Part shown: piece after piece, positions 3,732 through 51,624 of the stretch
How the letters are laid out: each line of letters starts with the position of its first letter
Numbering within the stretch: position 1 is the stretch's first letter
Assembly: GCA_045639845.1 (NCBI GenBank)
Contig: JAZUDW010000107.1
Location: forward strand, 4,106 to 68,105
From: Bacteroidales bacterium
GTDB lineage: Bacteria > Bacteroidota > Bacteroidia > Bacteroidales > P3
Direction of reading: 5' to 3'
DNA length: 64,000 nt
Notes under the pieces: model-generated
The model's database searches: none
The model's input: the letters and a program-made list of their open reading frames with translations, nothing else
What the model was told of the DNA's origin: nothing
Position numbers and translations under genes: made by a program

Positions 3732-3764
3732 AAAAAAACGGGAGTGCCAGGAATTAATACTCCC
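3732..3764 (-). terminator. Intrinsic terminator of the por operon
   Basis: On the minus strand, stem gggagt/actccc (13-nt loop) overlaps the last codons and the TAA of the second porN, and is followed by gTTTTTTT. Confidence 0.7.
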
Positions 3765-4629
3765 ACATGTCACTGCCTATCTCGAGCAGCATCTCCTCGA
3801 TTCTATTGGACTCCAGTATGGCATCTAGTCCAGTGAGATAAGATGAGATAGTACGATTGAAGACATTGGATTCACGGGTGATATAACTATCGAACATCCG
3901 GCTGACGAATATTTCGTCCCAAGTGGGTAAGTGTGCTATGTTGTCTGCATAGTAGGCTTCGTGTGTAACGAGGAGCTTGCGAACATTATACGAAGTCATG
4001 GGAATCCAGAACAGTTCAACTGTACCAATGAAATCTCGCTCCATACCTACCTCTTTGAAGAGGTCGCGTGCCAAACAGAAACCTAAAATACGCACATTCT
4101 GACGTGTGGTCTGCTTCTCAACAAACCAGGCTTCTTTCAATCGCACTTGAAGAATGTCTTCTGAGTTAAACTCTTTGGGGACCAATACAGTCTTGTACTC
4201 GTAGTTCTCATCGTCGTCTTCTATCTCCAAGATAAGCGTATCGGCCTTGGTATAACGAAACACAAACTCATCATTGTCGAGGGGTATCTTAAACTCATCG
4301 TCTTCATAGATAGGGATGTCGTTGTTGACCACTGCATCCCATATAGTATAGGCAAAGTTTCGACGGCCTTGCGATCCTTGCTTCTCAAGAGGATAATAGA
4401 AGAACTGATTGAACTTCATACGAAGATCTATAGTACGCCATATAGTGGTACCCCACACTACATCGATCTCGCGAAGATGGGGATAGGGCATCACTTCCTT
4501 CTGATGTACCAAAGCATGCTCATAAAAATGATTGAAGTTGCGCTCCGGCTCATCGACCGTCTGACTATATACTGCCAGACTATACAACAGAAACAGAATA
4601 AGCGATAATATGGATACGACTCGATTCAT
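3754..4629 (-). CDS. Second PorN/GldN-family T9SS periplasmic ring protein (GldO-like tandem paralog)
   Basis: 291 aa with a signal peptide. About half its residues are identical to the adjacent PorN, including FNHFY, LREIDVVW, IWRTID, FNQFFY, RESN.FNR.ISSYLTG.DAILES and the terminal DMWEY. It is the last gene before the operon terminator. Confidence 0.8.
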   Translation of the reverse strand: MNRVVSILSLILFLLYSLAVYSQTVDEPERNFNHFYEHALVHQKEVMPYPHLREIDVVWGTTIWRTIDLRMKFNQFFYYPLEKQGSQGRRNFAYTIWDAVVNNDIPIYEDDEFKIPLDNDEFVFRYTKADTLILEIEDDDENYEYKTVLVPKEFNSEDILQVRLKEAWFVEKQTTRQNVRILGFCLARDLFKEVGMERDFIGTVELFWIPMTSYNVRKLLVTHEAYYADNIAHLPTWDEIFVSRMFDSYITRESNVFNRTISSYLTGLDAILESNRIEEMLLEIGSDMWEY

Positions 4630-4730: not shown

Positions 4731-5615
4731 TTAGTATTCCCACATATCCGATTCGATATCGGCAATCTTGTTCTCAATATTCTGAGATTCCAAGATAGCA
4801 TCGGTACCAGTGAGGTAAGAGGAGATACTTCGATTGAAGGTGTTGGACTCACGATATACAAAACTATCGAAGTAACGGCTGATGAAGATGTCATCGTAGG
4901 TACGCTGAACAGCAATATTGTGCTCATCGTAAGCGTTGGCCTTTACAAGGATGTTGCGTACACGCATATCATCCATGGGTACCCAGAACATCTCAACAGG
5001 TTCGCACATACGCTCACCATCACGTTCACGACAATAGTTGTAAACAAGGGTAAGACCAGTGATACGCACTTTCTGACGGGTATCCTGTTTGTCGATATAC
5101 CAGAACTCTTTCAAACGAGCTTGGAACACATCTTCAGGACGGAACTCTTCAGTAAGAATGGTATCGCGACCTTCCAACTCATCACCATACTCATCATATT
5201 CAGGAATATGATAAGCATAAGTACGATTGAGCTGCTGAGCCAAAGTCTCATAATCTTTAGGGATAATAAGATCATCATTTTCATACACCTCGATGTCGCC
5301 GTTTTGCAAGGCATTCATGATGCAATTGGTGAGGTTGATACGATCTTGGGTATTCTTGGTTTGATCCGTGGGAAAATAGAAGAACTGGTTGAACTTCTCG
5401 CGGAAATCAATAGTACGCCAAATGGAAGTTGACCACACCACATCAATCTCGCGAAGGAAAGCATAGGGCATAGCACGCTTTTCTTTAGTGAGCGTCTTTG
5501 CGTAGAAGTGGTTGAAGTTATGCTCATCCTCAGCATCGATGGCGCTTTGGGCACGGAGGCTGCAAAAACCAGCCATAAAGATGAACAATCCTAAACAAAA
5601 CAGTGCCTTTTTCAT
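4731..5615 (-). CDS. porN: T9SS protein PorN/GldN
   Basis: Lies immediately downstream of porM. Signal peptide MKKALFCLGLFIFMAGFCSLRA. GldN-family conserved blocks as listed for the paralog. I moved the start from the upstream TTG at 5642 to ATG 5615. Confidence 0.85.
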   Translation of the reverse strand: MKKALFCLGLFIFMAGFCSLRAQSAIDAEDEHNFNHFYAKTLTKEKRAMPYAFLREIDVVWSTSIWRTIDFREKFNQFFYFPTDQTKNTQDRINLTNCIMNALQNGDIEVYENDDLIIPKDYETLAQQLNRTYAYHIPEYDEYGDELEGRDTILTEEFRPEDVFQARLKEFWYIDKQDTRQKVRITGLTLVYNYCRERDGERMCEPVEMFWVPMDDMRVRNILVKANAYDEHNIAVQRTYDDIFISRYFDSFVYRESNTFNRSISSYLTGTDAILESQNIENKIADIESDMWEY

Positions 5616-5688
5616 ATTAGTGAATTTTAAAGTTTTCGTCAATCTAATTGTTGCTTACTTCAAATGAGATGTAACGTGATTAAAAAAT

Positions 5689-18851: not shown

Positions 18852-21800
18852 TCAAGGTGCTATCGTGCACGATTCCCCGATAGTCACCTGGGTATTTCCT
18901 CCGACCACGCCACCGTTGCCGCCGCCATACACATTCTTCTCCACTTCGGTGTTGCCGTAAATGTTTACCGTAGTGGAGCCATCGGTTTGGGCAGTATTAC
19001 CCAGTCCGCCACCAAACACGTGGTTTTTGATCAGTACCTTTTTCGTGTCGCCATCCATGCCACGGGTGGTCACCACAGGGTCTCCTACTACAGAAGCCGC
19101 ACTGCCACCACCATACACAGAGCCATTGATGGTCACCTGATGGTTATATGAATGCTCACCATCTGGACAATCGGTGTCTATGTTCACCTGAGGGTTGCCC
19201 GTCACTATGGCCGTGCCACCCAGTCCGCCACCGAACACATCGCCTGTGATCGTGGCATTTCTCACATACACCACCGGGTTGCGAGGTGTTTCGTTTGTCC
19301 CATAGGGTGCCAGATGGCCGCCACCATATACATTACCCAAAGCGTTGGAACCACAAGTGTTGTTCCAATCCACATTGACAGTGATATTGCCATTGATAGC
19401 ACCGCTATTGTTGTTGCCGCCAAACACGTTGCCGATATTTCCACCCGTGATATTTAGGTTGATATCGCCCGTGACATCGGCCTTGTTGGCTCCGCCATAC
19501 ACATTGGCTATCGAACCCTCACCAGTACAGCCGATGGTGATACGGCCGGCATTGGATGCCGCCATGTTGCCTCCACCATAGAGGTCGGTCACAGCGATAG
19601 GGCACAGATTGTTTTCTCCGAAAGCCTCTGCCTCGACATCCACTATGATAGTACCACCGATAGTTCCTTGACTGTTGCTGCCGCCATACACCTCGTTGAT
19701 CGTGCCGCCGTGAAGGATAAGATGCGTATTGTTCGTCACATCGGCAGGAGACGAGGCTCCATTGCCGCCGGCAAACACACGGTTTATCAAACCACCCCAT
19801 ATCGTCACCTCGGTATTCGGCACCGTGGCCGCATTGCCACCGCCGAAAACATCCTCTATGCTGTTGTCGCAATTCTCAACAAGCACCTCGGTATAATCGT
19901 TGGCATTGGTAGGAACATAAGCCGCCAGATTACCGCCGCCATACACAGCAGCCACATGGTATGGATGTTCTTGCGACTCTGTGCCCTTGGATGTAGTAGT
20001 CTTAATATCTACAAATACATGACCCTGAGGTGTTCCGTTGAGGTTGTTGCAGCCGAATATCTCACCCAGCACCACACTGCCGTTGAGGACAACAGTAGTA
20101 TTGCCCGTAACATGAGCTTCCACGTTGGTCGTGGCTCCATTGATGCCCACCTTTGAACCAAGGCCGCCACCATAGGTGCTGTGGAGTTTGCCCCCATTGA
20201 GGTTCACCGATGTGTTGCCCACAATATCGGCAAGGGAACCACCACCATACACATCACCGCGCACGGGGCCAGAGTTGATATCCACTCGTGTATCGCCAAC
20301 CACCTGGGCTAACTCACCACCGCCATAGACGTCGCCCATGACCTCGTCGTTGGCATCAGCCTCAATATTCACATACGTCGTTCCTGTCACCTTGGCCTTG
20401 TCGGGATGGCCCGATTCACCCTTGCCTCCACCGAAAACGTTGCCGTTAACCACATTGCCATCGACCACCTGGCCCAACACACCGCCGTTGATAGTAATGT
20501 TGGTAGTACCATCTACAGCACCCATCTCGCCACCGCCATATACATTGCCGAGGAAGGGATGGCTCGCCGGCAGGTCGATGGTGATATTGATAGTCGAGGC
20601 GTATAGTTCACCAAGGTCAATATCACCAGTAGTAGCAATACGGAGATATTCCTGAGTTGATGTTGAGGCAATACCGGCACCACCACCATATATGTTGCCA
20701 CCGATGGTAGGCCAAAGTTCGTCTGTACCTGTAACGTTGAGATTCACCGAGCCGTTCATCTCTGCTATGTGGTTGATGGTTTGTCCGTAGTTGTTAGTAC
20801 TTCCATAGTAATCTTTTGCTCCCTGACTACCGCCATAGACAGAGCCAACTATCATTCCGCCTGATACATTTACATTCGATGTACCAAAGACAGAACCCAC
20901 GCCTTGCATTGTCACACCAGATGGCATACCATTGACAAATCCGCAACCACCACCGTAAATGCTGCCATTGATAGTGCCGCCAGAGAGGTTCAGTGTAGTA
21001 GATGACAGTTCGAGGCTCAACGGAGCGGGAGTGTATCCACCATTGCCATCGGAATTATGTAAGGTGACACTTGCCAAGGGTGAACCTGCAGGCATACTGC
21101 CCCAAGTGCCATACTGCACACCGTTCATAATAGCATCTGTAGCATTGTTGGCATCGGTTGTCGCATATGGAACATGCATATCCCACGGGTTAAGTCCGAT
21201 GACACCACCGGCACCACCTCCATAGATATTGCCTGTCACAATACCGCTCTTCATGTTGATCTCAGTCTGGCCATACATGTACATATCAACAACGGTAGCA
21301 TCTTTACCATCTTGCACATCACGTCCAAGGCCGCCTGCATAGAGGTTTCCGATAGTGATGTCTTTAAGATCAGCATTCTGCTCTACGTTGATTATTGAAC
21401 GTCCAAAGAATGAAGCGTTAGGCCATTGCCCCCAGTTTCCAGATTTTCCACCAGGTTGGACGAACGTTTTCGAACCGTTTGCAGCCGGATTTCCTTGATT
21501 ACCACCGACAATATATTCCACCTTGCCACCATGTACATTGATCTCATAGTCACCATACATTGAGCCATCCGTCAGTCCGGCAACAATACAATTGATGTCG
21601 CAGGTAAAGGCATCTGTCTTCACCCCTTGATTAGAACCCTGTTCACGTTTGACTGTACCCTCGTTTGGGTTATCCTTATCAATATCAATATTAATGACCG
21701 CCCACACTGGATGTGCTGCAGAACCGAGGATTGTATGGCTTGTATTTCCGCCATTATTAAAGAAAGCTTGAGTGAAACGTCCTGCCATAATACGGCCATA

Positions 21801-24800
21801 GTGGCCCGATTCGATGGTCAAAGTCTGCGGTTTGGACCTAATGGTGTAGGTACTAATGTCTTCCTCATTAAGATTGGAAGCTGTCAGCAGAACCGTGAAC
21901 TCTGGAATATTCTGATCTGCATTAATATTACCATGCCCCTGGCTTAAATTACGGAAATTAGTCATCACCAACCCCTTGCCAAACCACACACTATTTCCAT
22001 GGCAATCAAAGAAGTTGTTGTCATCTGTGTTTTTATTGGCTCTAAAAGTAAGATACTCGAATTTGGTATCACCCTTTACATAGTTGTGGAAACCATTTGT
22101 AGTTGATGTATTATTCACACCCGTCTCGCCTGTCTTTACAATTTTGATCACGCCGTTGTAATCCACGCCACCCCATTTCCCGGTGAGTGCAGCAGGATTT
22201 GTACCTTTACTACGGAAGGCTACATCGGTGCCAGGGTTCAGTATGCCTATTACCACCACATAGTTCTTATCCCAAGTGCCACCATCTGCCACTGGTTTCA
22301 GCAGCAGGTTGGCGTTGTCGATGGTCTTAACTGCAGTCTCGGGGGTCCAGCCGCGGAGGGTAGATCCCACGGCGTTATCGACACCTCTTGTGCCATCCAC
22401 AAAGACCACGATGGCGTTGGTGCCGTAGAGCCAGCAACTGATAGGGTCATGGCCATCTACGGTGAGTGTCACTAGGCAATATACGCCATTGCCAGCAGCC
22501 ATAATCTGGTCGTTGGTCAGGCTGATTGATGCGTTGCTTCCGACAAGGGGCGTGGTTTTGTCGGATTCGTACCATTGGTAGCTGATGCTGATACCGGGAT
22601 CGGTAGGAACAGGAATATCACCTGGATTGACAGTAAATGTATAACCGGAGGCATCATCGCCCGTACGTTCCATCACAGGAACAAAACTGATACCTTCCTC
22701 CACAAACATCTCGGCCAACTCTTCGTCTTCCATATAGGTGCCGGCATTGACTCCTTGCATATAGTACATATAATAAGGAGCGTATGTGGCATCATTGGTA
22801 GTGAATTGCGGATAGATGCCTGTCTTGGTGTTCGAGTTGTTGAGGGTGTAGCCAAGGATGGTTTTCGACTGTTTCTTGATAACATCAATCTCGTTCTGGA
22901 TGGTAAAGGTACTGTCATCCACAGTCAGATAGCTGATACCATCAATTACCTCAGGTGTCTTTGTGTAGTTGCGAGTGCGAGCTGTTTGGTTCAATAACGC
23001 AGGCAGCAGACCTATCTTGTAGTCGCTGTAGTACCACGTCTTGCGCTTTGTCCAATCTTCCGTAATAGTAACATTCTCGCCAGAATAGTCATCATAGACG
23101 TATGTTGTGCCATTGGCCTTGAAAAATATACCGACAATAGGGCCTACGGCAGCATAAGGTGCGTATATCTTACCCGAGTAAAGCACATGCTCTGGCAGGG
23201 AGGAAGGAGCCTCAATACGTCCCAAAATACCACCGATGACGAAACCGTTGTTGTACATATTGTAGTTGCTGCCGCTCTTAGTGGCAAGAGTGATACTGCT
23301 AAAGTCGAAATCAACCTTGGAGATACACTGGTTGACCTCAGATTTGTTGGCTGCTGTCTGCTTGGTATAGCCGAGGATACCACCAAAGGCATAAGTCATA
23401 TTGTGTACGAACGTGTGGGTGCCTGTTGAGTGCATCTTACCACTGACAGCACAGTGTTCTATCTTGTTGGGCGTAGTGGCGATGGGCACGAGTTGACCAG
23501 CAATGCCGCCTACATAGACTGCATTGGTGAGGTCGCAGTTGAAGTTTATGTCAAGGTCTGGCAGATCGATGTTAGAGATAACAGACGGATAGTTGGCTGC
23601 ACCTGTGACATTGCCAAATGCACCACCAATGTATGAAGCCGCGGTGATGTTACCATTGAAGGTAAGATTGGAACCGGTAGTTACTTTCCAATCACGAACC
23701 GTAGTTTTATCCACGACACCCGCAAGACCACCGAGATAGCTGCCCGTAGTGATTTGTCCGCCAATGGTCACGCTGGCAGTGCCGATAGAAATGTCACTGC
23801 TCTGGATAGCATTTTCTGTCTGACTTCTACCCAAAAGATAACCTGCAAAACCACCAATCTGGCTACCTGATGCCACGTTACCACTTATGGCAACCGATGT
23901 TGTACCGGTGATTTCCGTATTGGTGATGTTGATGTAGTTGTTGGTTGCATTGGCTGGCGCTATCTGGCCAGCAAAGCCGCCGAGAGGACTTGCTATGGAT
24001 ACATTGCCCGTTACACTTGATGCGGTATTGCCTGTGATGGTGATATGATTAATACTCAGCGGAGCACCGGCAGCACTTGCGGCATTGCCCACAAAGCCAC
24101 CCACCTGACTGCCCGTAGTGACAAGATTGCCATTGACAGTGACGATGCTGCTGGTCACGCTCCAAGTGTCAATAGTGACATTGGTGGAAGCCTGACCCAT
24201 GAGGCCTATCTTGGAGCCGACTACATTATTGGAGGTAGTGGTACCCGTGGTGATGCTGGCTGTACCTATGGTGAAGTTAGTGGCCGAAGATGGATAGGAG
24301 GCTGCGGCAGTGATGCTACCGATGGCACTGCCGAGATAAGATCCAGCAGTAATATTTCCAGAATGGGTGATGGTAGCGCTGGTGATGCTCCAGCGATCGA
24401 GGTTGCACCCCTGAGCTACAAGTCCTACGAGACCGGCATAGTAACTACCTACAGAGGTATTACCGGAAAGGGTAATATTGGTTGTGCCAAGTGAAACATT
24501 CTTGGCGGTAATAAGAGCACCTGTTTGGCTTCTGCCTACGAAATAGCCCGAGAAACCACCTATATGGCTGGCAGCGGTGATGTCGCCACCCACAGAGACG
24601 ATGGTAGTACCAGCTATGCTTACGCCCTCATTGGTAGCATCATTTCCTCCAATGGTAATCGTCGCGTTGGCACTGTTGGCATTGGCAAACTGTCCGGCGA
24701 AACCGGCAAGTTGGCTTCCGATAGTTATGCCACCAGTGACAGTCACAGCACTGTTGCCCGTGATTTTAATTTTCTTGACTATCAGAGGTGCGTTGTTGGC

Positions 24801-26006
24801 ACTGGCCAGGTAACCCACGAAACCGCCTAACTGACTGGCTGTTGTTGTAAGGCTGCCTTTCACTTGCACTGAGGTATTGGCTATTGTCCAGTTCTCAAGA
24901 CGCACGTTGGTAGTACATTGACCGATGAAACCTGCTTTGATGGCTTGCATCTCTGCTGTTGACTTGTTGGCCTCTGTGCCTATAATCACCTGTGCCGTAC
25001 CGGTGGATGTGACACCTGTGACAGCAGTCTCTTGTGCAGCCACACCAAAAATGCCGCCGACGAACGAGCCGAGATTGAGAGCCACATTCGGATTATCCGC
25101 ATTGTTGTAGGTGAGCGAAGGTGCCGTAACATTCACATTGTCAACCGTACTATAGGTATTGATCTGACCGATGACGCCACCGATGAACGAATTCGCAACT
25201 GTCACTTTGTTAATCGTCACAGACGGATTGCTGACAGTGAGACCGCTGATAGTAGATACACCTTCAGCAGAGGTTCCTGCAAACTTACCGATAGCGGCAC
25301 CAATGAAAGAAGCACCAGCATTGGTTACAGAGACAGTCACAGAAGGGCTAGTCACAGAACAGTTCGTGATGGTAGAGTTCTTTTGAACCGTTGCGGCCAA
25401 AGCTCCAATATAGTTCGTACCCGTGAGATTGGTGTAGCTGACGGTAACGCTGTTGACGTGAACACCCGTAATAGTTGCATACTGCGCCATGTTGCCCACA
25501 AAGGCACTGGTGTATGTTGTCGATCCAAGGTCAACCGCATCGGGTTGGGTGATGGTAACATGGCTGATGGTAAGGTTTTTCACCTCGGCACGATTATCTG
25601 CAGAACCCTGAATAGTACCAAAGAGGGCATTACACTTGTTCGACACTGGCGTGATGGTATAGTTGCTGACAGTCTTGTTGTTACCATCAAGGTGGCCCTT
25701 GAAGGTTTTGGGGGCAGCACCAGCATAGGGCCAATCGTGGCCTCCGAGATCGATGTCGGCATTCAATTTCCAATAGGCAGTGCTATTGTGGGCCAATGCG
25801 CCGAAAGCCACAAACTTGTTGGGATCGTCGATAATATAGGGATCTGATTCCACACCGGTGCCAGTGATACCAGCAGCAACAAGGGTGGTATATTGAGTGG
25901 TTCCATCCCATACGATAGGGCTTTGTGCCCATGCAATGCCTGTTCCTAATAAAAAGACAACAAGGAGCACCACCAGGTGCATTTTATAAATATAATATTT
26001 ATTCAT
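18852..26006 (-). CDS. Giant exported repeat protein: signal peptide, GLUG-like array (about aa 60-940), Ig-like linker, YGGG beta-solenoid (about aa 1197-2384); no T9SS CTD recognised
   Basis: Uninterrupted 7155-nt ORF with an ATG start. Signal peptide MNKYYIYKMHLVVLLVVFLLGTGIAWA. Repeats are described in the findings. A TAtaTTTG promoter box lies 133 nt upstream. Confidence 0.85.
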   Translation of the reverse strand: MNKYYIYKMHLVVLLVVFLLGTGIAWAQSPIVWDGTTQYTTLVAAGITGTGVESDPYIIDDPNKFVAFGALAHNSTAYWKLNADIDLGGHDWPYAGAAPKTFKGHLDGNNKTVSNYTITPVSNKCNALFGTIQGSADNRAEVKNLTISHVTITQPDAVDLGSTTYTSAFVGNMAQYATITGVHVNSVTVSYTNLTGTNYIGALAATVQKNSTITNCSVTSPSVTVSVTNAGASFIGAAIGKFAGTSAEGVSTISGLTVSNPSVTINKVTVANSFIGGVIGQINTYSTVDNVNVTAPSLTYNNADNPNVALNLGSFVGGIFGVAAQETAVTGVTSTGTAQVIIGTEANKSTAEMQAIKAGFIGQCTTNVRLENWTIANTSVQVKGSLTTTASQLGGFVGYLASANNAPLIVKKIKITGNSAVTVTGGITIGSQLAGFAGQFANANSANATITIGGNDATNEGVSIAGTTIVSVGGDITAASHIGGFSGYFVGRSQTGALITAKNVSLGTTNITLSGNTSVGSYYAGLVGLVAQGCNLDRWSITSATITHSGNITAGSYLGSAIGSITAAASYPSSATNFTIGTASITTGTTTSNNVVGSKIGLMGQASTNVTIDTWSVTSSIVTVNGNLVTTGSQVGGFVGNAASAAGAPLSINHITITGNTASSVTGNVSIASPLGGFAGQIAPANATNNYINITNTEITGTTSVAISGNVASGSQIGGFAGYLLGRSQTENAIQSSDISIGTASVTIGGQITTGSYLGGLAGVVDKTTVRDWKVTTGSNLTFNGNITAASYIGGAFGNVTGAANYPSVISNIDLPDLDINFNCDLTNAVYVGGIAGQLVPIATTPNKIEHCAVSGKMHSTGTHTFVHNMTYAFGGILGYTKQTAANKSEVNQCISKVDFDFSSITLATKSGSNYNMYNNGFVIGGILGRIEAPSSLPEHVLYSGKIYAPYAAVGPIVGIFFKANGTTYVYDDYSGENVTITEDWTKRKTWYYSDYKIGLLPALLNQTARTRNYTKTPEVIDGISYLTVDDSTFTIQNEIDVIKKQSKTILGYTLNNSNTKTGIYPQFTTNDATYAPYYMYYMQGVNAGTYMEDEELAEMFVEEGISFVPVMERTGDDASGYTFTVNPGDIPVPTDPGISISYQWYESDKTTPLVGSNASISLTNDQIMAAGNGVYCLVTLTVDGHDPISCWLYGTNAIVVFVDGTRGVDNAVGSTLRGWTPETAVKTIDNANLLLKPVADGGTWDKNYVVVIGILNPGTDVAFRSKGTNPAALTGKWGGVDYNGVIKIVKTGETGVNNTSTTNGFHNYVKGDTKFEYLTFRANKNTDDNNFFDCHGNSVWFGKGLVMTNFRNLSQGHGNINADQNIPEFTVLLTASNLNEEDISTYTIRSKPQTLTIESGHYGRIMAGRFTQAFFNNGGNTSHTILGSAAHPVWAVINIDIDKDNPNEGTVKREQGSNQGVKTDAFTCDINCIVAGLTDGSMYGDYEINVHGGKVEYIVGGNQGNPAANGSKTFVQPGGKSGNWGQWPNASFFGRSIINVEQNADLKDITIGNLYAGGLGRDVQDGKDATVVDMYMYGQTEINMKSGIVTGNIYGGGAGGVIGLNPWDMHVPYATTDANNATDAIMNGVQYGTWGSMPAGSPLASVTLHNSDGNGGYTPAPLSLELSSTTLNLSGGTINGSIYGGGCGFVNGMPSGVTMQGVGSVFGTSNVNVSGGMIVGSVYGGSQGAKDYYGSTNNYGQTINHIAEMNGSVNLNVTGTDELWPTIGGNIYGGGAGIASTSTQEYLRIATTGDIDLGELYASTINITIDLPASHPFLGNVYGGGEMGAVDGTTNITINGGVLGQVVDGNVVNGNVFGGGKGESGHPDKAKVTGTTYVNIEADANDEVMGDVYGGGELAQVVGDTRVDINSGPVRGDVYGGGSLADIVGNTSVNLNGGKLHSTYGGGLGSKVGINGATTNVEAHVTGNTTVVLNGSVVLGEIFGCNNLNGTPQGHVFVDIKTTTSKGTESQEHPYHVAAVYGGGNLAAYVPTNANDYTEVLVENCDNSIEDVFGGGNAATVPNTEVTIWGGLINRVFAGGNGASSPADVTNNTHLILHGGTINEVYGGSNSQGTIGGTIIVDVEAEAFGENNLCPIAVTDLYGGGNMAASNAGRITIGCTGEGSIANVYGGANKADVTGDINLNITGGNIGNVFGGNNNSGAINGNITVNVDWNNTCGSNALGNVYGGGHLAPYGTNETPRNPVVYVRNATITGDVFGGGLGGTAIVTGNPQVNIDTDCPDGEHSYNHQVTINGSVYGGGSAASVVGDPVVTTRGMDGDTKKVLIKNHVFGGGLGNTAQTDGSTTVNIYGNTEVEKNVYGGGNGGVVGGNTQVTIGESCTIAP

Positions 26007-26503: not shown

Positions 26504-26633
26504 GACAGTGCCACAAGTGACACTCTTTTTAAAAATAATACGCGAGGGTATTTATTGACCACATCGACGAACTATTCAATAAACAAACCCGCGCGTATAG
26601 TTTATGTTTTAGACCGTCACTTGTGGCACTGTC
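26504..26633. repeat. Perfect 18-bp inverted repeat with a 94-bp spacer
   Basis: gacagtgccacaagtgac at 26504-26521 and gtcacttgtggcactgtc at 26616-26633. The spacer itself is partly self-complementary (acgcgaggg / cccgcgcgt). Confidence 0.8.
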
Positions 26634-26792: not shown

Positions 26793-26845
26793 TCTGCCCT
26801 CGGAGTGCCTTCGGAGTGCCTTCGGAGTGGTCTCGTCCCAGACAC
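26793..26845 (+). repeat. Module M2 (triple 10-nt GTGCCTTCGG repeat plus hairpin), giant-gene locus
   Basis: tctgccctcggagtgccttcggagtgccttcggagtggtctcgtcccagacac. Confidence 0.65.
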
Positions 26846-43371: not shown

Positions 43372-44844
43372 CTACTTCAAATTAAACTTCAGCGATTTCT
43401 CACCTTTCACGGTGCGGATATAAAGCGTATATTTAGCCTTCGGCATCTTGCTGATGGTGATACGAGCGCCATTCTTGTAGGCGGGGATGGTACGGATGCT
43501 GTTGCCATCTTGATCCACAAACTCCACCTCTGCCACAGGGCTCTCCATAGTGATGGTGATATAGCCCTCGGCCAAGAAAGGATTGACCATCACCTTTTCC
43601 GACGAGTTACCCGAGGCCACCATACCCGACGAGATGACGAAATCTTTGTTGAACGTGAACGAAGTGATATTGGTCAGATCGGCTTGTTCGGGCACAAAGG
43701 TGAAGCCCTCCAACTGCGGACGCAACACACCGCCGCTACCCGTAGCCACTTCGAGATAGTAGATACCGTTTTCGTCGGTCACCGTACTCTTGTCGCCACA
43801 CGACACCGTGACACCGGCACGTGCCACACCTTTCTCGTCGGCTATCCTGCCTTGGATACCTTGACCTGTGAAACGGACCAAGCCATGAAAGTCGGTACCA
43901 AACCACTTAATACCCTGACCGTCGATAGCGATATTCTGCACCACCTTGCCTGGCAAGGGGCTGTTTTTGGGGGTGAACACACGCCAGTTTTTCTGACAGT
44001 CGAACACAGCCACACCTTCGTCGGTAGCTATCCACAGCATACCTGCGGCATCAAAGCAAAGATCATTGATCTGATTGCTGGGCAGCGGGCTGTTGAGCTT
44101 GTTGTAGATAGACCATTTATCACCATCGAAACGACACAGACCACTCAACGTACCAATCCACTTCACATTATTCTTATCCACCACTACAGAAGGCACTATA
44201 TTGTGGGGCAGTCCCGAATTCTTGGTCGTGTAGGAGGTCCAGTTATTGTTGTCGAACACACAGAGGCCATCGTTGGTGCCTATCCATTTGTTGTTACGCT
44301 GGTCTATGGTCACACAAAGAATGAAATCGGACAGCAGTCCCGAGTTGGACGCCGTATATTTGGTCCAATTGGTACCATCGTATTTCACCAAACCGCCCAA
44401 TGTGACACCGATCCACTTCACATCATTTCGGTCGATGGTGATCTCGCGGATAAACTTCATGTTCATCTGCTTAGTCTGCTGAGTATATTCGGTCCACTTG
44501 CTACCATTGAACTCTATCACACCGTAGTCGTCGGTACCAATCCACAGTGTACCCTTGCTATCCACAGTGAGACAGTTCACAAACTGATCCTTCAGCTTCT
44601 CGTTAAACATAGAGTAATCCATCCAAGTCTTACCGCTATAGCGGCACAATCCCAGATTGGTACCCACCCACTTATTATTCTTCTTATCAGTAGTCAGTGC
44701 CAAAATGGTATTGCCGCCTATCTCGGAATTTTTCACATTGAAAGTGAGCCAAGTCTGTCCAAAGGCACCCACACCGGCACCTAAAGCCATAAGCAGCGCC
44801 AAAGCCACCATACATTTTCTCATTATGTTATTCATATATTGCAT
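43372..44844 (-). CDS. T9SS cargo: beta-propeller (two-component-regulator propeller-type repeats), CarboxypepD_reg-like domain and C-terminal sorting domain
   Basis: 490 aa with a signal peptide. At least 7 repeats of the W[IV]GT..GL..[FY]DG..W..Y type. Contains IQGRIADEKGVARAGVTVSCGD...ENGIYYLEV. The last 70 aa or so (VNPFLAEGYITI...YTLYIRTVKGEKSLKFNLK) resemble a type A T9SS CTD. Confidence 0.7.
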   Translation of the reverse strand: MQYMNNIMRKCMVALALLMALGAGVGAFGQTWLTFNVKNSEIGGNTILALTTDKKNNKWVGTNLGLCRYSGKTWMDYSMFNEKLKDQFVNCLTVDSKGTLWIGTDDYGVIEFNGSKWTEYTQQTKQMNMKFIREITIDRNDVKWIGVTLGGLVKYDGTNWTKYTASNSGLLSDFILCVTIDQRNNKWIGTNDGLCVFDNNNWTSYTTKNSGLPHNIVPSVVVDKNNVKWIGTLSGLCRFDGDKWSIYNKLNSPLPSNQINDLCFDAAGMLWIATDEGVAVFDCQKNWRVFTPKNSPLPGKVVQNIAIDGQGIKWFGTDFHGLVRFTGQGIQGRIADEKGVARAGVTVSCGDKSTVTDENGIYYLEVATGSGGVLRPQLEGFTFVPEQADLTNITSFTFNKDFVISSGMVASGNSSEKVMVNPFLAEGYITITMESPVAEVEFVDQDGNSIRTIPAYKNGARITISKMPKAKYTLYIRTVKGEKSLKFNLK

Positions 44845-46539: not shown

Positions 46540-49500
46540 TTAGTGCGAAGCACAATTCTCGCCAATAGTCACATTCGTATCGCCCTGGACCACACCTCCG
46601 TTACCACCACCATACACATTCTGCTCTATTTCGGTGTTACCATAGATATTAACCCGAGTGCTACCCGTCACAATGGCCGTGCTACCCAGACCGCCGCCAA
46701 ACACGTGGTTTCTGATCAATACCTTCTTATCATCGCCATCCATGCCACGGGTTGTCACCGTGGGGTTTCCTACCACGGGAGCGGCGCTGCCGCCGCCATA
46801 TACCGAACCATTCACCACTGCCTTGTGGCTGTAGCTGTGTTCGCCGTTCGCACAGTCGGTATTCACATTCACCTGCGGGTTGCCCGTCACCGTAGCCGAC
46901 TCACCCAGGCCGCCGCCGAACACATCGCCCTCTATAGTAGCATTGCGGATATTCACCACAGGGCCACGCGGCGTCCCCGCAGAGCCATAGGCAGCCTGGT
47001 TGCCGCCGCCATACACGTTGGTGAGCGAGTTGGAGCCGCACAATCCGTCCCAATCCACATTCACGGTGATGCCACCATTGATGCTACCACCCGAATTGTT
47101 GCCGCCAAACACATTGCCGATATTACCGCCATTGATATTCAAAACTATATCGCCGTCCACATCGGCATTGTTGGCACCGCCGTACACATTGTCGATAGTA
47201 CCATCGCCCGTACAAGCAATGGTGATTGTTCCTGCTTTTCCGTCGGCCTCATTGCCGCCACCATAAAGATTGGTTATTGCGATATCGCAGGCTTCTGGAT
47301 CCTTATCCACTGTAACACTCACACTGCCTCGGATATTGCCTAAAGTATTGCTGCCACCATAGGTATTGGTGATGGAGCCGCCTTTGATAGTCAGACTCAC
47401 ATTGCCCGTACCCAAGGTATATTCTGTGGTACCATTGGCTTCATAACCCACATGGGCAGCAACCGACTCTCCATTGCCGCCGCCGAAGGCATCGGTGATA
47501 CGACCACCCCAGATGGTGACATTCGTTGACGGCACTGAAGCCGCATCGCCTCCACCGAACACACGATCCACTACAGTCTCACAACCACGAACAACGACCG
47601 ATGGAATGCCATAGGTGGCAGCGTGCTTGCCTCCACCAAACACATCGTTGAGGTCGAGAGGTGTAACCTCCTTCTCTGCAAGATTGGCCGGACCATCCAC
47701 CAGCACCGTGATATTACCCTTGGGCGACCCGTTGGTATTGTTGCCGCCATATACATTGCCGCCCACCTCGGCACCCTTGTTGATAATCACGCTCACGTTG
47801 CCGTTCACATCGGCCTCGTAGGCGGGTATTGCAGGAACGGCATCATTATCGGCCTTCTGACCGAAACCGCCGCCGAAGACATCTCTTCCCACATGGGCAT
47901 CGTTGTTGATGATTACCGTGGTAGTGTTTTCCGTATCGGTGTTCACCGTGCCGAAGCCGCTGCCGCCATATACATCTTCCGTCACTGTGCCACCCGAAAC
48001 CGTTACGGCCACATTGCCCGACACGTTGGTGGCATTACCCAAGCCACCGCCATAGATATTGTTGGCCGAGCCCGACGTCATACTTACGGCGGTGCTGCCC
48101 ACCACGCTGGCAGCCGAGCCGCCGCCATATACATTGCCGCTCACAGCACCTCCGCTGATGGTGACCGCCGGATTGCTGGTAACCACAGCCGATGCACCCA
48201 AGCCGCCGCCGAACACATCGTGGGTCACCGTACCCTTCAGAATGTTGACTGCAGGATAAGCACCGGGAGTGGTAGGTGTATATGCAGCCAGGTTGCCGGC
48301 ACCATAAACGTAGCCGAGACTCAGGTCGCAATCATCGCTCTTATTTACATTCACGGTGATAGCACCGCTGATATTTCCACGGGTATTGTTACCACCGAAC
48401 ACATTGCCGATATTACCGCCATTGATATTCAAAACAATATCACCTTCTACATTGGCCTCGTTGGCCCCACCATACACATTGTCGATCGTTCCCTCTCCGG
48501 TACACCATATGGTGATATGGCCGGCATTGGATGCCGCCATATTGCCTCCACCATACACGTTGACGATATCCATGTGGCAAGCCTCGCTTTCAGCTTCGGC
48601 TTGTGCCGAGATAGAGACATTGGGCACACCGCCAATAATACCCCGACTATTGGAACCGCCAAACACATTGCCAATCTCGCCACCGTAAATCGTCACGTTG
48701 GTATTGCCACCGATATTGGCAGCCTGAACCTGCCCATTACCGCCACCGAACACATCTCCGATACGATTGCCACCATAGATGACCACATCCGTATGGCCAT
48801 TGGTGGAATGAGTCAGGTGAGCAGCGTTGCCACCACCATACACATATTTAATACTATTGTCGCAGTTATGCACCGTCACATGCGGTGTACCCGATGAATA
48901 ATCGGCCTGGTTGCCACCGCCATAGACCGAGAATACTGCATAGCTATCATCATCGTAGTCGTCTGTGCCGTTGTCATCGTGCGAGTTGGTACCATAGATA
49001 TCTACGTGCACCGAGTCTTTGGGCTCACCATTAAGATTGTTGCAACCAAACACACCGCCAGATCCGTTGGCACCTGTACCATCGGTAGCAAATACATTTC
49101 CACCATAGACGTTTACCTGTACAGGCCCATAGACATTGGCAGCAATAGCAGGGTCGGTTTGGCCTAGGGCTCCACCATATATAGAACCATAGACAACACC
49201 GGCATTCAAGGAGACAGATGTTGACTTATCGGCAGTAGCAGTATGAGGTTCCGCCGTAGTGCAATTCACATTACCCAAAGCAGAACCGCCATACACATCA
49301 CCTTTGATGGTAGCAGCTGCTGCATCGCGAGCCGACCCTATCTTACCAATAAGTACCTCCACATTGCCAGTCACCACGGTAGTCTGGCCGAGACCACCGC
49401 CAAAGACACCACCATTATACAGACTCGGATCTCCAATGGTTCCAGAATAGACTTCCACTTTGGTATCTCCATCCACCAAAGCAATCTCCCCACCACCGTA

Positions 49501-49587
49501 AATCTTACCATTGATAGTCTGTGAATGCAACGGAGTAAAGATTCCCAGCAGGACTATAATATTAATAAGACACCACTTTCTTTTCAT
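46540..49587 (-). CDS. Exported YGGG beta-solenoid protein (C-terminal half of the split paralog of the giant gene)
   Basis: 1015 aa counted from ATG 49587; the ORF track starts one codon earlier at a GTG. Signal peptide MKRKWCLINIIVLLGIFTPLHS. [VI][YF]GGG repeats run throughout. The last 190 aa or so are nearly identical to the giant protein C-terminus. A hairpin terminator follows. Confidence 0.8.
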   Translation of the reverse strand: MKRKWCLINIIVLLGIFTPLHSQTINGKIYGGGEIALVDGDTKVEVYSGTIGDPSLYNGGVFGGGLGQTTVVTGNVEVLIGKIGSARDAAAATIKGDVYGGSALGNVNCTTAEPHTATADKSTSVSLNAGVVYGSIYGGALGQTDPAIAANVYGPVQVNVYGGNVFATDGTGANGSGGVFGCNNLNGEPKDSVHVDIYGTNSHDDNGTDDYDDDSYAVFSVYGGGNQADYSSGTPHVTVHNCDNSIKYVYGGGNAAHLTHSTNGHTDVVIYGGNRIGDVFGGGNGQVQAANIGGNTNVTIYGGEIGNVFGGSNSRGIIGGVPNVSISAQAEAESEACHMDIVNVYGGGNMAASNAGHITIWCTGEGTIDNVYGGANEANVEGDIVLNINGGNIGNVFGGNNTRGNISGAITVNVNKSDDCDLSLGYVYGAGNLAAYTPTTPGAYPAVNILKGTVTHDVFGGGLGASAVVTSNPAVTISGGAVSGNVYGGGSAASVVGSTAVSMTSGSANNIYGGGLGNATNVSGNVAVTVSGGTVTEDVYGGSGFGTVNTDTENTTTVIINNDAHVGRDVFGGGFGQKADNDAVPAIPAYEADVNGNVSVIINKGAEVGGNVYGGNNTNGSPKGNITVLVDGPANLAEKEVTPLDLNDVFGGGKHAATYGIPSVVVRGCETVVDRVFGGGDAASVPSTNVTIWGGRITDAFGGGNGESVAAHVGYEANGTTEYTLGTGNVSLTIKGGSITNTYGGSNTLGNIRGSVSVTVDKDPEACDIAITNLYGGGNEADGKAGTITIACTGDGTIDNVYGGANNADVDGDIVLNINGGNIGNVFGGNNSGGSINGGITVNVDWDGLCGSNSLTNVYGGGNQAAYGSAGTPRGPVVNIRNATIEGDVFGGGLGESATVTGNPQVNVNTDCANGEHSYSHKAVVNGSVYGGGSAAPVVGNPTVTTRGMDGDDKKVLIRNHVFGGGLGSTAIVTGSTRVNIYGNTEIEQNVYGGGNGGVVQGDTNVTIGENCASH

Positions 49588-49596
49588 CACTATTGT

Positions 49597-51624
49597 TTAT
49601 TCTGTCCAGTTTTCATCTACAATCACATTCGTGCTTCCCGACACCTTGGCTTTATTGGGATGCCCCTCTTCGCCCTTACCAGCACCAAACACGTTTCCAT
49701 TGATAATACCACCTTTGATGACCACTCTGGTATCGCCATCAACAGCACCCAGAGCTCCGCCACCATAGATATTGTGGCCGAATGTCCACGAAGGATCAAT
49801 TGGATCAACCACAACCGTGGTTGTTCCATACACATGGGCTATGTCTAAATATTCGTTTTGATCAGTAGCAATACCAGAGCCCCCTCCGTATATATCACCT
49901 TCGATATTGCCTCCACGTATATTCACGTGCGTGTTGCCATAAACCTGGGCCACGGAAAGGAAGCCTGATTTATGAGGATTGGATTGATTATAATACTCTT
50001 TAGTACCAAGGCCACCCCCATACACACCCCCACGAATAGTACCACCATAGATATTAACATAGGTATCACCATAGTGGGTACCGGCTCCATCTGGGGCATA
50101 CGATACTGTGACTTGAGGCTCATATCCCCTACTACCACCACAGATACCTCCCTCTATCAAACCTCCATATACATTGAAGGTAAGCCTAGTCTCAGCCAGG
50201 TCAAGATAATCCTGTCCTTCCACATATCCCTCATCGCCATTGTGATAGGTAGATTTGAGGGTCATCATCGTACCCGATTCGCTGTAAGAACCAAAAGATA
50301 GTTCATTGCTATTATTCACATAAGGTATAGCATAGTCGGGGGTATGAATATTGTGATCATTCTCATAACGCAGCCCACTGAAGGCTGTTGCCGAAGCAAA
50401 CACACCCGCCATAATAGTTCCACTGTACATATTGAACTCCGACTGCCCGTAGAAATACGATGAGCCTGCATTGGTTTGACTACTGGATGTCTGAGTTCGG
50501 CCCTGGGTGCCGCCATAGAACGTCTGTATCGTCACATCGCTACTACCACCATCTTCGTTTCCTACATTCACAACCGTTCGGCCTGCAAAGGTAGCCGCAG
50601 GAATTTGACTAATAACGCATTGATTAATATTATTACCCTGCGTACCAGCCACCATGGTGCCTATGCTTCCGTGCTTGATATCAAACTGCACATCAGCACA
50701 TACTAAACCTTGCGATGACCCACCCAACAAGATACCGATATCATCGGCATAATTACCCGTATTGTCGTTACCAGGCTGAATATCCACGATGACATTTGCC
50801 ATAATAGGATGTTCGGGAGTACCTTGTATGTAACAGGAGGGGACAGAGGTTGCATTTGTGCCCTGAGTACGGGACAGTGCCACACGACCATAGCGTCCCG
50901 ATTTGAATGTAACTGTCATTCTTTTATCGTCGGGCATTCGGTATTTCACATCATTGGTATCTCGGGCAATTTTAGAATCGTAATGGTCAAACGACATCTG
51001 GATATGAAAAGCAGGAGCATCACGGTCACTAATCATACCATATTGAGTACCAAGTGAAGCAAACCCCATCATTATGAGTCCTTCATCAAAACAGGTGGAA
51101 TGTAAACGGAGACACAATCTATCTTGGAGTCCTCCATCTCCTTGTATTCTCGCATTCTTGAAACGCGCATCCGCACCTATATTGTTGGTAGTACCGGAGA
51201 TCTTAATTTGACCACCCTTAATTATTGAATCCGTTGTAGCTTTACCATCTTGATCCCAAGGCCATACTCCTGTAATTGTGGCAGGTGTACCTGGGGTATT
51301 CGAGACATCTTTCGTATCGTTTTCTTTGAAATTCAGTTGCATCTCGTCCACAACTACAATCACGTTGTGTTCCCAATCGTATTCTCGATTGCCAGTATTC
51401 ACAAGTTTTTTGTATGCATTGGGCCAAGAACCGACAGGACTACTGGAGCTTGATCCATCGCCATTTCCACCAGAGCGTAGATACACCACATTATACGTCA
51501 CCTCATGATACGTCTCTGTATGCGGAGCTTGCTGAGCCCACAATCTACCCATTCCAACAATGGATAAGAAAAAAACAAGTAGTTTTACATATGTTTTCAT
51601 ACGTATCATACGCGTTGTCTGCAT
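49597..51624 (-). CDS. Exported beta-solenoid protein (N-terminal half of the split paralog of the giant gene)
   Basis: 675 aa. Signal peptide (MKTYVKLLVFFLSIVGMGRLWA) lies within the first 31 residues. Collinear with giant-protein residues of about 1197-1880. A TAttTTTG box lies 82 nt upstream. Alternative starts are at codons 6 and 9. Confidence 0.8.
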   Translation of the reverse strand: MQTTRMIRMKTYVKLLVFFLSIVGMGRLWAQQAPHTETYHEVTYNVVYLRSGGNGDGSSSSSPVGSWPNAYKKLVNTGNREYDWEHNVIVVVDEMQLNFKENDTKDVSNTPGTPATITGVWPWDQDGKATTDSIIKGGQIKISGTTNNIGADARFKNARIQGDGGLQDRLCLRLHSTCFDEGLIMMGFASLGTQYGMISDRDAPAFHIQMSFDHYDSKIARDTNDVKYRMPDDKRMTVTFKSGRYGRVALSRTQGTNATSVPSCYIQGTPEHPIMANVIVDIQPGNDNTGNYADDIGILLGGSSQGLVCADVQFDIKHGSIGTMVAGTQGNNINQCVISQIPAATFAGRTVVNVGNEDGGSSDVTIQTFYGGTQGRTQTSSSQTNAGSSYFYGQSEFNMYSGTIMAGVFASATAFSGLRYENDHNIHTPDYAIPYVNNSNELSFGSYSESGTMMTLKSTYHNGDEGYVEGQDYLDLAETRLTFNVYGGLIEGGICGGSRGYEPQVTVSYAPDGAGTHYGDTYVNIYGGTIRGGVYGGGLGTKEYYNQSNPHKSGFLSVAQVYGNTHVNIRGGNIEGDIYGGGSGIATDQNEYLDIAHVYGTTTVVVDPIDPSWTFGHNIYGGGALGAVDGDTRVVIKGGIINGNVFGAGKGEEGHPNKAKVSGSTNVIVDENWTE

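Follow-up and report, generated by a model that had tools for sequence, protein, structure and literature searches.

Large surface proteins of the Bacteroidota usually carry a C-terminal domain (CTD) that serves as a sorting signal for the T9SS (type IX secretion system), and SprB and RemA of Flavobacterium johnsoniae are giant adhesins that are cargo of this system. The T9SS moves folded proteins (PMC9251779), and the T9SS signals known so far fold into domains that contain motifs B, D, and E (PMC11969387, PMC10202324); in Prevotella, there are short and long type A CTDs, all of which have these motifs (PMC11969387). Here we describe a giant protein of 2384 amino acids (aa) encoded in a stretch of 64,000 nucleotides (nt) of contig JAZUDW010000107.1 from a Bacteroidales bacterium; this whole stretch is referred to as the window. 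Like the T9SS type A cargo adhesins, the giant protein is huge, repetitive, and, by its signal peptide, Sec exported, in a genome with a full T9SS core (PorPKLMN and SprA are encoded in the window), and its relatives in other genomes adjoin giant family members with a type A CTD. However, the giant protein itself lacks a CTD of type A, B, or C. It thus fails the defining feature of T9SS cargo, so any use of the T9SS would be indirect or by an unknown signal.

Our analysis shows that the giant protein is not unique but is one fused member of a widespread, uncurated family of mostly gut and rumen Bacteroidales, and that it is an exact rung-to-rung fusion of two genes that are adjacent in a conserved cluster of its relatives. 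In related bacteria, the protein is encoded as two or three neighboring genes, and usually at least one of them has a T9SS signal. As modeled, the giant protein is a Sec-exported rod composed of two beta-solenoids, with a GLUG-type head (residues 28-940), a short nonrepeat region, and a stalk (residues 1197-2384) whose rungs carry a YGGG motif. The features of the gene and its product are as follows.

18852-26006, minus strand: complete open reading frame of the giant protein (2384 aa, ATG start, stop codon 18852-18854 included; P0001 is 100% identical).
25926-26006, minus strand: predicted signal peptide, residues 1-27, signal peptidase I type, cut between AWA and Q (read directly from the sequence; homologs have the same ...AWAQ pattern).
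23187-25925, minus strand: GLUG-type beta-helix array, residues 28-940, with the N-terminal cap DPYII...DIDL...F.G.LDGNNKTV (from the motif count, sub-threshold Pfam scores, the model, and the 3n6z match).
24222-25001, minus strand: super-repeat copy 1, residues 336-595 (42% identity to copy 2, E value of 4e-70).
23517-24266, minus strand: super-repeat copy 2, residues 581-830 (42% identity to copy 1).
22419-23186, minus strand: nonrepeat middle region, residues 941-1196, mixed alpha/beta, with a terminal beta-sandwich at about 1108-1196 (from the secondary structure of the model).
21360-22418, minus strand: first part of the second beta-solenoid, residues 1197-1549, without the YGGG motif (modeled; LTDGSMYGD and VGGNQGN are invariant in alignment A1).
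18855-21359, minus strand: YGGG beta-solenoid, residues 1550-2384, 22 rungs with [VIL][YF]GGG (from the motif count and the model).
20307-20393, minus strand: fusion junction, residues 1872-1900, KAKVTGTTYVNIE-ADANDEVM-GDVYGGGELAQVVG, whose left part aligns with the C terminus of gene 1 and whose right part aligns with the mature N terminus of gene 2 of relatives.
18867-19592, minus strand: C-terminal module, residues 2139-2380, 68-80% identical to the C terminus of a 1016-aa paralog in the window.

The initial annotation, which was made from the letters of the window alone, described a single 7155-nt open reading frame with a signal peptide. This description holds, and the minus strand can be added: the frame is unbroken, and a 100% identical protein with its start at Met9 (P0001) is on record from a 69-kb NCBI contig. 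The N terminus, MNKYYIYKMHLVVLLVVFLLGTGIAWA followed by Q, reads as a classical cleavable Sec signal peptide, and because the lipobox Cys is absent, the giant protein is not a lipoprotein. Its C terminus reads ...NVYGGGNGGVVGGNTQVTIGESCTIAP and ends directly after a complete rung, without a capping or sorting domain. The 260 nt between the stop codon and the next gene, pgk, contain stop codons in all three frames; therefore, no CTD tail is hidden behind the giant gene, and the protein does stop inside its repeat, as had been noted. Both paralogs encoded in the window have a Cys residue 5 or 6 residues from the C terminus (IGESC at residues 2379-2380 of the giant protein and IGENC in the 46540-49590 protein), which is not present in the homologs of other genomes, whose ends read ...IGQ or ...IGE.

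The reported lack of a CTD was confirmed by profile searches. Neither the complete protein nor its C-terminal segments of 100, 120, or 200 residues matched a type A CTD (TIGR04183/PF18962, short form included) at E values of ≤1 to 10, and NCBIfam returned 0 families at an E value of ≤1, including the type B (TIGR04131) and type C (NF033708) sorting domains. Likewise, the tail is without the GxY-I and terminal K/R motifs described for CTDs (PMC11969387). As a positive control, the same library recovered TIGR04183 in the protein encoded at 56743-58614 (E value of 9e-11), in agreement with the type A ending first read there. The second protein to which such an ending had been ascribed (43372-44844, minus strand; 490 aa, with Reg_prop repeats) does not match TIGR04183 and is instead PorZ-like, with a partial match to the PorZ model (108.8 bits; cutoff of 260; profile of 757 positions). 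As first noted, the giant gene sits among T9SS core genes: the window encodes PorP, PorK, PorL, PorM, two copies of PorN, SprA, this PorZ-like protein, and one bona fide type A cargo. The two PorN/GldN paralogs (3754-4629 and 4731-5642, minus strand) are adjacent, follow porP-porK-porL-porM, and both score above the cutoff of TIGR03523.

The head of the giant protein is a genuine repeat array. The motif S-[YQHFL]-[ILVY]-[GA]-[GASL]-[FLVAI] occurs in 12 copies between residues 233 and 791, spaced by 35 to 49 residues or double that distance, whereas shuffled sequences average 0.11 copies, with 2 at most. The super-repeat noted earlier is real, but its offset is about 242 aa and not about 215 aa. 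An AlphaFold model of residues 28-1196, built with homolog alignments (pLDDT of 88.7 and pTM of 0.84), shows a beta-helix up to about residue 930, followed by a mixed region that ends in a beta-sandwich. When this model was compared with the PDB using Foldseek, the sole solved structure at an E value of ≤0.001 was 3n6z (E value of 4.9e-4, probability of 1.0, and target TM-score of 0.49), the beta-helix of a Bacteroides ovatus “putative IgA1 protease” (BACOVA_03286); the Streptococcus pneumoniae IgA1 protease (7uvl and 6xja) and 6xjb matched weakly. Both Pfam Glug (PF07581; 14.5 bits, cutoff of 20.5) and Peptidase_M26_N (PF05342; 18.1 bits, cutoff of 27.7) remained sub-threshold, and precomputed PF07581 matches are present in three homologs. 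Thus, the initial assignment as GLUG-like is upheld by the fold and by these homologs, not by the Pfam threshold. The N-terminal 900 or so residues are modeled as the same kind of beta-helix as that of the GLUG/IgA1 protease group (PF07581, PF05342, 3n6z, and 7uvl/6xja), and similarity to GLUG units is seen in the cap motif and in the S-x-[ILV]-G-G-[FLV]-x-G units. However, the giant protein has no M26 peptidase domain following the helix, its Pfam scores lie below the gathering thresholds, and its array is far longer, with the 242-aa super-repeat. The beta-sandwich at about residues 1108-1196 is probably Ig/FN3-like, as Foldseek matched such domains with a probability of >0.9 over about 95 columns, whose placement in the query is presumed.

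In the stalk, the motif [VIL][YF][GA][GAC][GSANC] is found in 22 copies, all confined to residues 1555-2359 (shuffled sequences average 0.34 copies, with 4 at most). The region of 1197-2384 originally given for the YGGG repeat thus stands for the modeled solenoid, while the motif itself begins only near residue 1555. The AlphaFold model of residues 1197-2384, also built with homolog alignments (pLDDT of 83.5 and pTM of 0.82), is nearly all beta, and the solenoid continues to the C-terminal end. The proposal that the C-terminal repeat belongs to no described family gained support: there was no match in Pfam at an E value of ≤10 for the isolated region 1197-2384 or the last 100 or 200 residues, in NCBIfam at an E value of ≤1 (including the Pmp repeat and autotransporter repeat models), in PDB sequence searches with the single protein or a 28-sequence profile, or in Foldseek searches of the PDB at an E value of ≤0.001, and a Foldseek search of a viral library returned nothing specific. 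In particular, the repeat is neither the Pmp type (PF02415 and TIGR01376) nor the autotransporter type, as had been stated, since these models do not match at permissive thresholds. Pmp-type repeats also occur in Bacteroidota. Like the chlamydial Pmp proteins, the giant protein is large and presumably a surface protein, with short repeated motifs predicted to form a beta-helix, but its motif is [VIL][YF]GGG...G[ND]T.V.I and not GGAI/FxxN.

The weak Foldseek neighbors of the stalk model are all long solenoids (RTX, Fap2, EspP, EtpA, Hap, VacA, Ag43, pertactin, and a Ca2+-bound antifreeze protein). The top match was 7usl_C (E value of 0.035), and the best target-normalized TM-score (0.43 to 0.45) was that of 3p4g. 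These neighbors raise the question of whether the giant protein is an adhesin secreted by a type V (autotransporter or two-partner) or type I (RTX-like) system, but they show only the common shape of long beta-solenoids: all E values exceed 0.03, and the TM-scores are ≤0.26 except for the small antifreeze protein. Furthermore, Pfam and NCBIfam searches found no C-terminal barrel, two-partner secretion (TPS) domain, autotransporter repeat (PF12951/TIGR02601), or RTX nonapeptide, no transporter gene is adjacent, and the cleavable Sec signal peptide argues against type I secretion. Hence, secretion by either of these systems is extremely improbable. The giant protein does share a long, unbranched, probably adhesive solenoid rod with the type V adhesins (Fap2, EtpA, Ag43, pertactin, Hap, and EspP), but there is no sequence relation, and the host phylum and the machinery differ. 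Its rungs are likewise Gly-rich with conserved N/D positions, as in the RTX blocks (CyaA, 7usl) and region IV of MpAFP (3p4g); however, its period is about 25 to 50 residues and not 9 or 19, the E values are not significant, no RTX Pfam model matches, and a Sec signal peptide is present.

A word-indexed search identified 115 close or medium homologs, nearly all from Bacteroidales metagenome-assembled genomes (MAGs), many of herbivore gut origin. About 45 of these share the whole giant architecture; the remaining homologs have only the YGGG stalk, joined to different N-terminal regions (e.g., Fn3_assoc/CHB_HEX_C or M26_N). When residues 1886-2384 were used in an exhaustive HMMER search, it yielded 1465 cluster representatives at an E value of ≤1e-3 and 772 at ≤1e-30 (clusters counted at 50% identity). 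The longest family protein has 7891 aa, and one cluster includes a Prevotella sp. protein. Scanning GTDB species for the conserved motifs LTDGSMYGD and VGGNQGN gave 15 loci, 14 in Bacteroidales genomes and 1 on a short contig binned as Lachnospiraceae. The latter (L017; contig JAZLHG010000074.1, 1439 bp) is 60% identical to the stalk region, and its binning is probably an error. Distant relatives exist in Bacilli MAGs, in which the YGGG region is preceded by an N-terminal membrane anchor and followed by a C-terminal Ig-like domain; these membrane-anchored proteins fit an extracytoplasmic role. In the literature searched on giant Bacteroidota solenoids, on GLUG in Bacteroidales, and on T9SS passengers without a CTD, we found no description of the YGGG family.

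Among the best representatives, 123 of 149 stop no more than 45 residues past the last YGGG motif, typically with ...GNVYGGGNxAxVTGNTNVxIGK.. before the stop codon, and 97 of 263 family proteins have a signal peptide, 0 to 15 further residues, and then V.V.G.V[YF]GGGN. Therefore, ending and starting inside the repeat is the normal state of the family. This bears on the idea that the giant gene is a decayed or misassembled T9SS cargo gene whose CTD was lost by truncation or frameshift, which would agree with the usual presence of a CTD in large Bacteroidota surface proteins and with the metagenome-type contig from which the sequence comes. Yet the same ending is found not only in these 123 representatives but also in the 46540-49590 paralog, P0002, P0003, P0022, and gene 2 of L005, none of the downstream frames contains a CTD-coding remnant, and the reading frame is intact over 7155 nt, which makes such decay very improbable. 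One subset of the family extends beyond the last rung (P0120, P0124, P0128, P0132, P0136, P0140, P0207, P0211, P0220, P0227, P0258, and the upstream gene of L024). In these proteins, a Q/P-rich linker follows and then NAATESQQTR(T/S)xxxxR(L/Q), a conserved peptide at the terminus that may be a short C-terminal signal.

Comparison with relatives reveals how the giant gene is composed. In L002, L004, L005, and L009, the equivalent of residues 1-1885 is a separate gene (gene 1) with the C terminus ...GKGEEGHPNKAKVTGNTNVIVD..WTEP, and an all-stalk gene (gene 2) begins 28 to 81 nt later, whose product has a separate signal peptide and, in its mature form, starts with TIKGNIYGGG. At the corresponding position, the giant protein reads ...GKGESGHPDKAKVTGTTYVNIE-ADANDEVM-GDVYGGGELAQVVG..., that is, an eight-residue link without a trace of a signal peptide, and this junction is modeled as a continuous solenoid with a pLDDT of 92 to 94 (model blocks 681-700). 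The window also contains the split form, as a pair of paralogous genes.

49597-51624, minus strand: gene 1-type paralog of 675 aa that has a signal peptide but lacks the GLUG array; it aligns with residues 1245-1886 and ends with ...GHPNKAKVSGSTNVIVDENWTE.
46540-49590, minus strand: gene 2-type paralog of 1016 aa, with 27 YGGG motifs and a signal peptide that leads straight into a rung (HSQ/TINGKIYGGGE); it ends with ...NVYGGGNGGVVQGDTNVTIGENCASH.

Together, these two genes correspond, in split form, to residues 1245-2384 of the giant protein. The 1016-aa gene starts 6 nt past the stop codon of the 675-aa gene, and the end of gene 1 common to this pair and the four loci named above is given as ...GHPNKAKVTGNTNVIVD..WTEP. 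The pair is located 1.7 kb from the PorZ-like gene and 5.5 kb from sprA; a 437-aa gene beside it was not recognized in a Pfam scan. The giant protein and the 1016-aa paralog are 68-80% identical in their last 245 residues, versus 40-48% further upstream, and the proportion of identical codons in the similar C termini (0.5 to 0.6 versus 0.38) is in modest excess. Because this excess is only modest, recent gene conversion was rejected as the cause of the similar C termini; older conversion or a shared constraint is possible. No excess C-terminal conservation was seen in comparison with homologs from other genomes. Elsewhere, the same unrelated gene of about 520 aa lies between gene 1 and gene 2 in two genomes (L006, 13510-15075, and L011, 2373-3929), and RhuM-like genes lie between the CTD-bearing and CTD-less giants of L023; insertions at gene boundaries appear to be tolerated or attracted by YGGG clusters.

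Of the 15 GTDB loci, all but L014 and the fragment L017 (i.e., 13) have another gene, with a signal peptide and a rung start, directly after gene 1. Close relatives have a third gene, encoding 2800 to 4100 aa with a signal peptide, a rung start, and a CTD-like tail (e.g., ...IYSTSGQYLRSVHVEPGVNRFNGFTRGIYVVGNTKVAM in L012). TIGR04183 is the best but sub-threshold match in L013, L025 (17.2 bits), L012, L021, and L015, and it scores above the curated cutoff in a giant located directly beside a CTD-less member in the more distant loci L019 (36.2 bits), L020 (29.4 bits), and L023 (26.9 bits). In L020, the CTD-bearing and CTD-less giant genes overlap by 4 nt. The fused homologs P0012 and P0031 are also located beside giants with CTD-like ends. 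(A hidden Markov model built from five CTD-like tails of relatives missed even the known CTD in the window and was dropped as too weak.) Since CTD-less members stand beside CTD-bearing members in other genomes, the export route, which had been called unexplained, is less blank than stated; the giant protein itself has no known sorting domain.

On this basis, we tentatively read the giant protein as a subunit of a modular surface fiber that reaches the surface by docking on a CTD-bearing partner, a reading that we hold to be plausible but short of probable. After removal of its signal peptide, the giant protein would fold in the periplasm, and its exposed last rung would stack on the exposed first rung of a family partner with a type A CTD. 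The partner would then take the assembly through the SprA translocon and tether it to the cell surface, with the GLUG head as the distal, probably adhesive, tip. The uncapped ends would allow such end-to-end stacking of subunits. For the genome studied here, this would place the partner gene outside the window. Several points weigh against docking. (i) No partner gene adjoins the giant gene, which has pgk downstream and the divergent rmuC upstream; its closest fused homolog, P0002, stands alone too and is followed by nrdD, and the split pair in the window has no CTD-bearing family member beside it. (ii) Several of the neighboring CTDs in other genomes are only sub-threshold matches. (iii) The fusion shows that the parts work together, not that split parts stack noncovalently, and both end-to-end stacking and the surface location are inferred. 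(iv) In the literature searched, we found no report of a T9SS that carries a CTD-less passenger.

The solitary position of the giant gene and of P0002 would be accounted for if the giant protein crossed the outer membrane alone by an unrecognized signal, e.g., the last rung (...GNVYGGGNxxxVxGNTxVxIG plus 0 to 8 residues), read by the T9SS or another route. The terminal rung and the abrupt stop are kept across very distant family members, the high identity of the last 245 residues of the two paralogs, with its modest codon excess, fits a C-terminal constraint, and the tail NAATESQQTR....R[LQ] that follows the Q/P-rich linker in a family subset resembles a short terminal signal. But nothing like the known T9SS signals, which are folded and have motifs B, D, and E, is present in the giant protein, a rung motif that is repeated 22 times within it would be a poor address label, the “end” motif is found in the middle of fused proteins, and the extra C-terminal conservation is not seen against homologs of other genomes. 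We therefore consider an autonomous signal unlikely. The combination of a Sec signal peptide with the lack of both a lipobox and any signal found for crossing the outer membrane, together with the absence of an adjacent partner gene, might also indicate that the giant protein is not displayed at all but resides in the periplasm or envelope, or leaves the cell only in vesicles or by lysis, with a structural or storage role. This is a still less likely explanation. GLUG-type helices and the Fn3_assoc/CHB_HEX_C domains of relatives are typical of secreted or surface proteins, in monoderm Bacilli, the anchor holds the relatives on the outer side of the membrane, an extracellular fiber is suggested by members that reach 7891 aa and have CTD-bearing neighbors, and a rigid rod tens of nanometers long, as estimated from the rung counts, fits the periplasm poorly.

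Taking docking further, YGGG solenoids would represent a new kind of modular fiber in T9SS-bearing Bacteroidales, in which head, stalk, and anchor are exported separately and joined noncovalently, rung on rung, with a CTD on the anchor only and CTD-less passengers “hitch-hiking” on it; this broader proposal is speculative, and we regard it as doubtful at present. As a purely functional analogy, fibers with a tip, shaft, and anchor (e.g., the type V pili of Bacteroidales) resemble YGGG clusters, whose consecutive genes encode head, all-stalk, and anchor-signal subunits and, in relatives, follow conserved lipoprotein genes; however, YGGG subunits are giant beta-solenoids and not pilin folds, and their assembly is hypothetical. 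Tandem genes for giant exported proteins are also known from Apilactobacillus kunkeei, whose Giant1-5 proteins have 3000 to 8000 aa and contain a beta-solenoid (PMC12863079). These differ from YGGG proteins in their SRRP-like solenoid and alpha-helical rod, monoderm host, and SH3b-like anchor, and the comparison is an analogy.

Additional genes and repeats accompany the YGGG loci. In several close relatives (L004, 857-4993; L012, 177-4249; L013, 1391-5575; L008, 1253-5384; and others), two to four conserved lipoprotein genes are located directly upstream of the fiber genes. Their products share C-terminal motifs such as ...NPDYLYVLSEHDN.HITI and ...PW.YGG...E.KNW. One such lipoprotein of L002 has a weak precomputed match to Mfa_like_1, and Pfam gave no match for those of L004; these genes are absent from the window. 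A DUF5106 gene (about 240 to 255 aa) directly follows the CTD-less YGGG giant in L019 (19109-19876; 4-nt overlap) and L020 (18835-19554). Upstream of the giant gene, the 1070-nt spacer contains two repeats. The first is a 23-nt inverted repeat (26504-26526 and 26611-26633; 91% complementary, with 84 nt between the arms), located about 500 to 630 nt upstream of the gene, for which a hairpin, a small mobile element, and an invertible switch are possible readings. The second is an 11-nt tandem repeat, TGCCTTCGGAG (26795-26829; 3.2 copies, 95% matches). An Rfam scan of this spacer of about 1 kb gave only spurious sub-threshold matches to microRNA precursors or hairpins.

Catalogues of T9SS cargo rest on CTD searches, to which more than 1000 YGGG protein clusters, including some of the largest proteins of gut and rumen Prevotella-like bacteria, would be invisible. 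The YGGG repeat deserves a curated family model; annotation pipelines currently call its proteins “hypothetical” or give them the name of a minor accessory domain. With one fused and one split locus in the same genome, the window supplies a natural pair of constructs, and partner genes with clear CTDs are available in relatives. If CTD-less giants do reach the cell surface, then either the T9SS carries passengers without a CTD or a different route for very large proteins exists in Bacteroidales.

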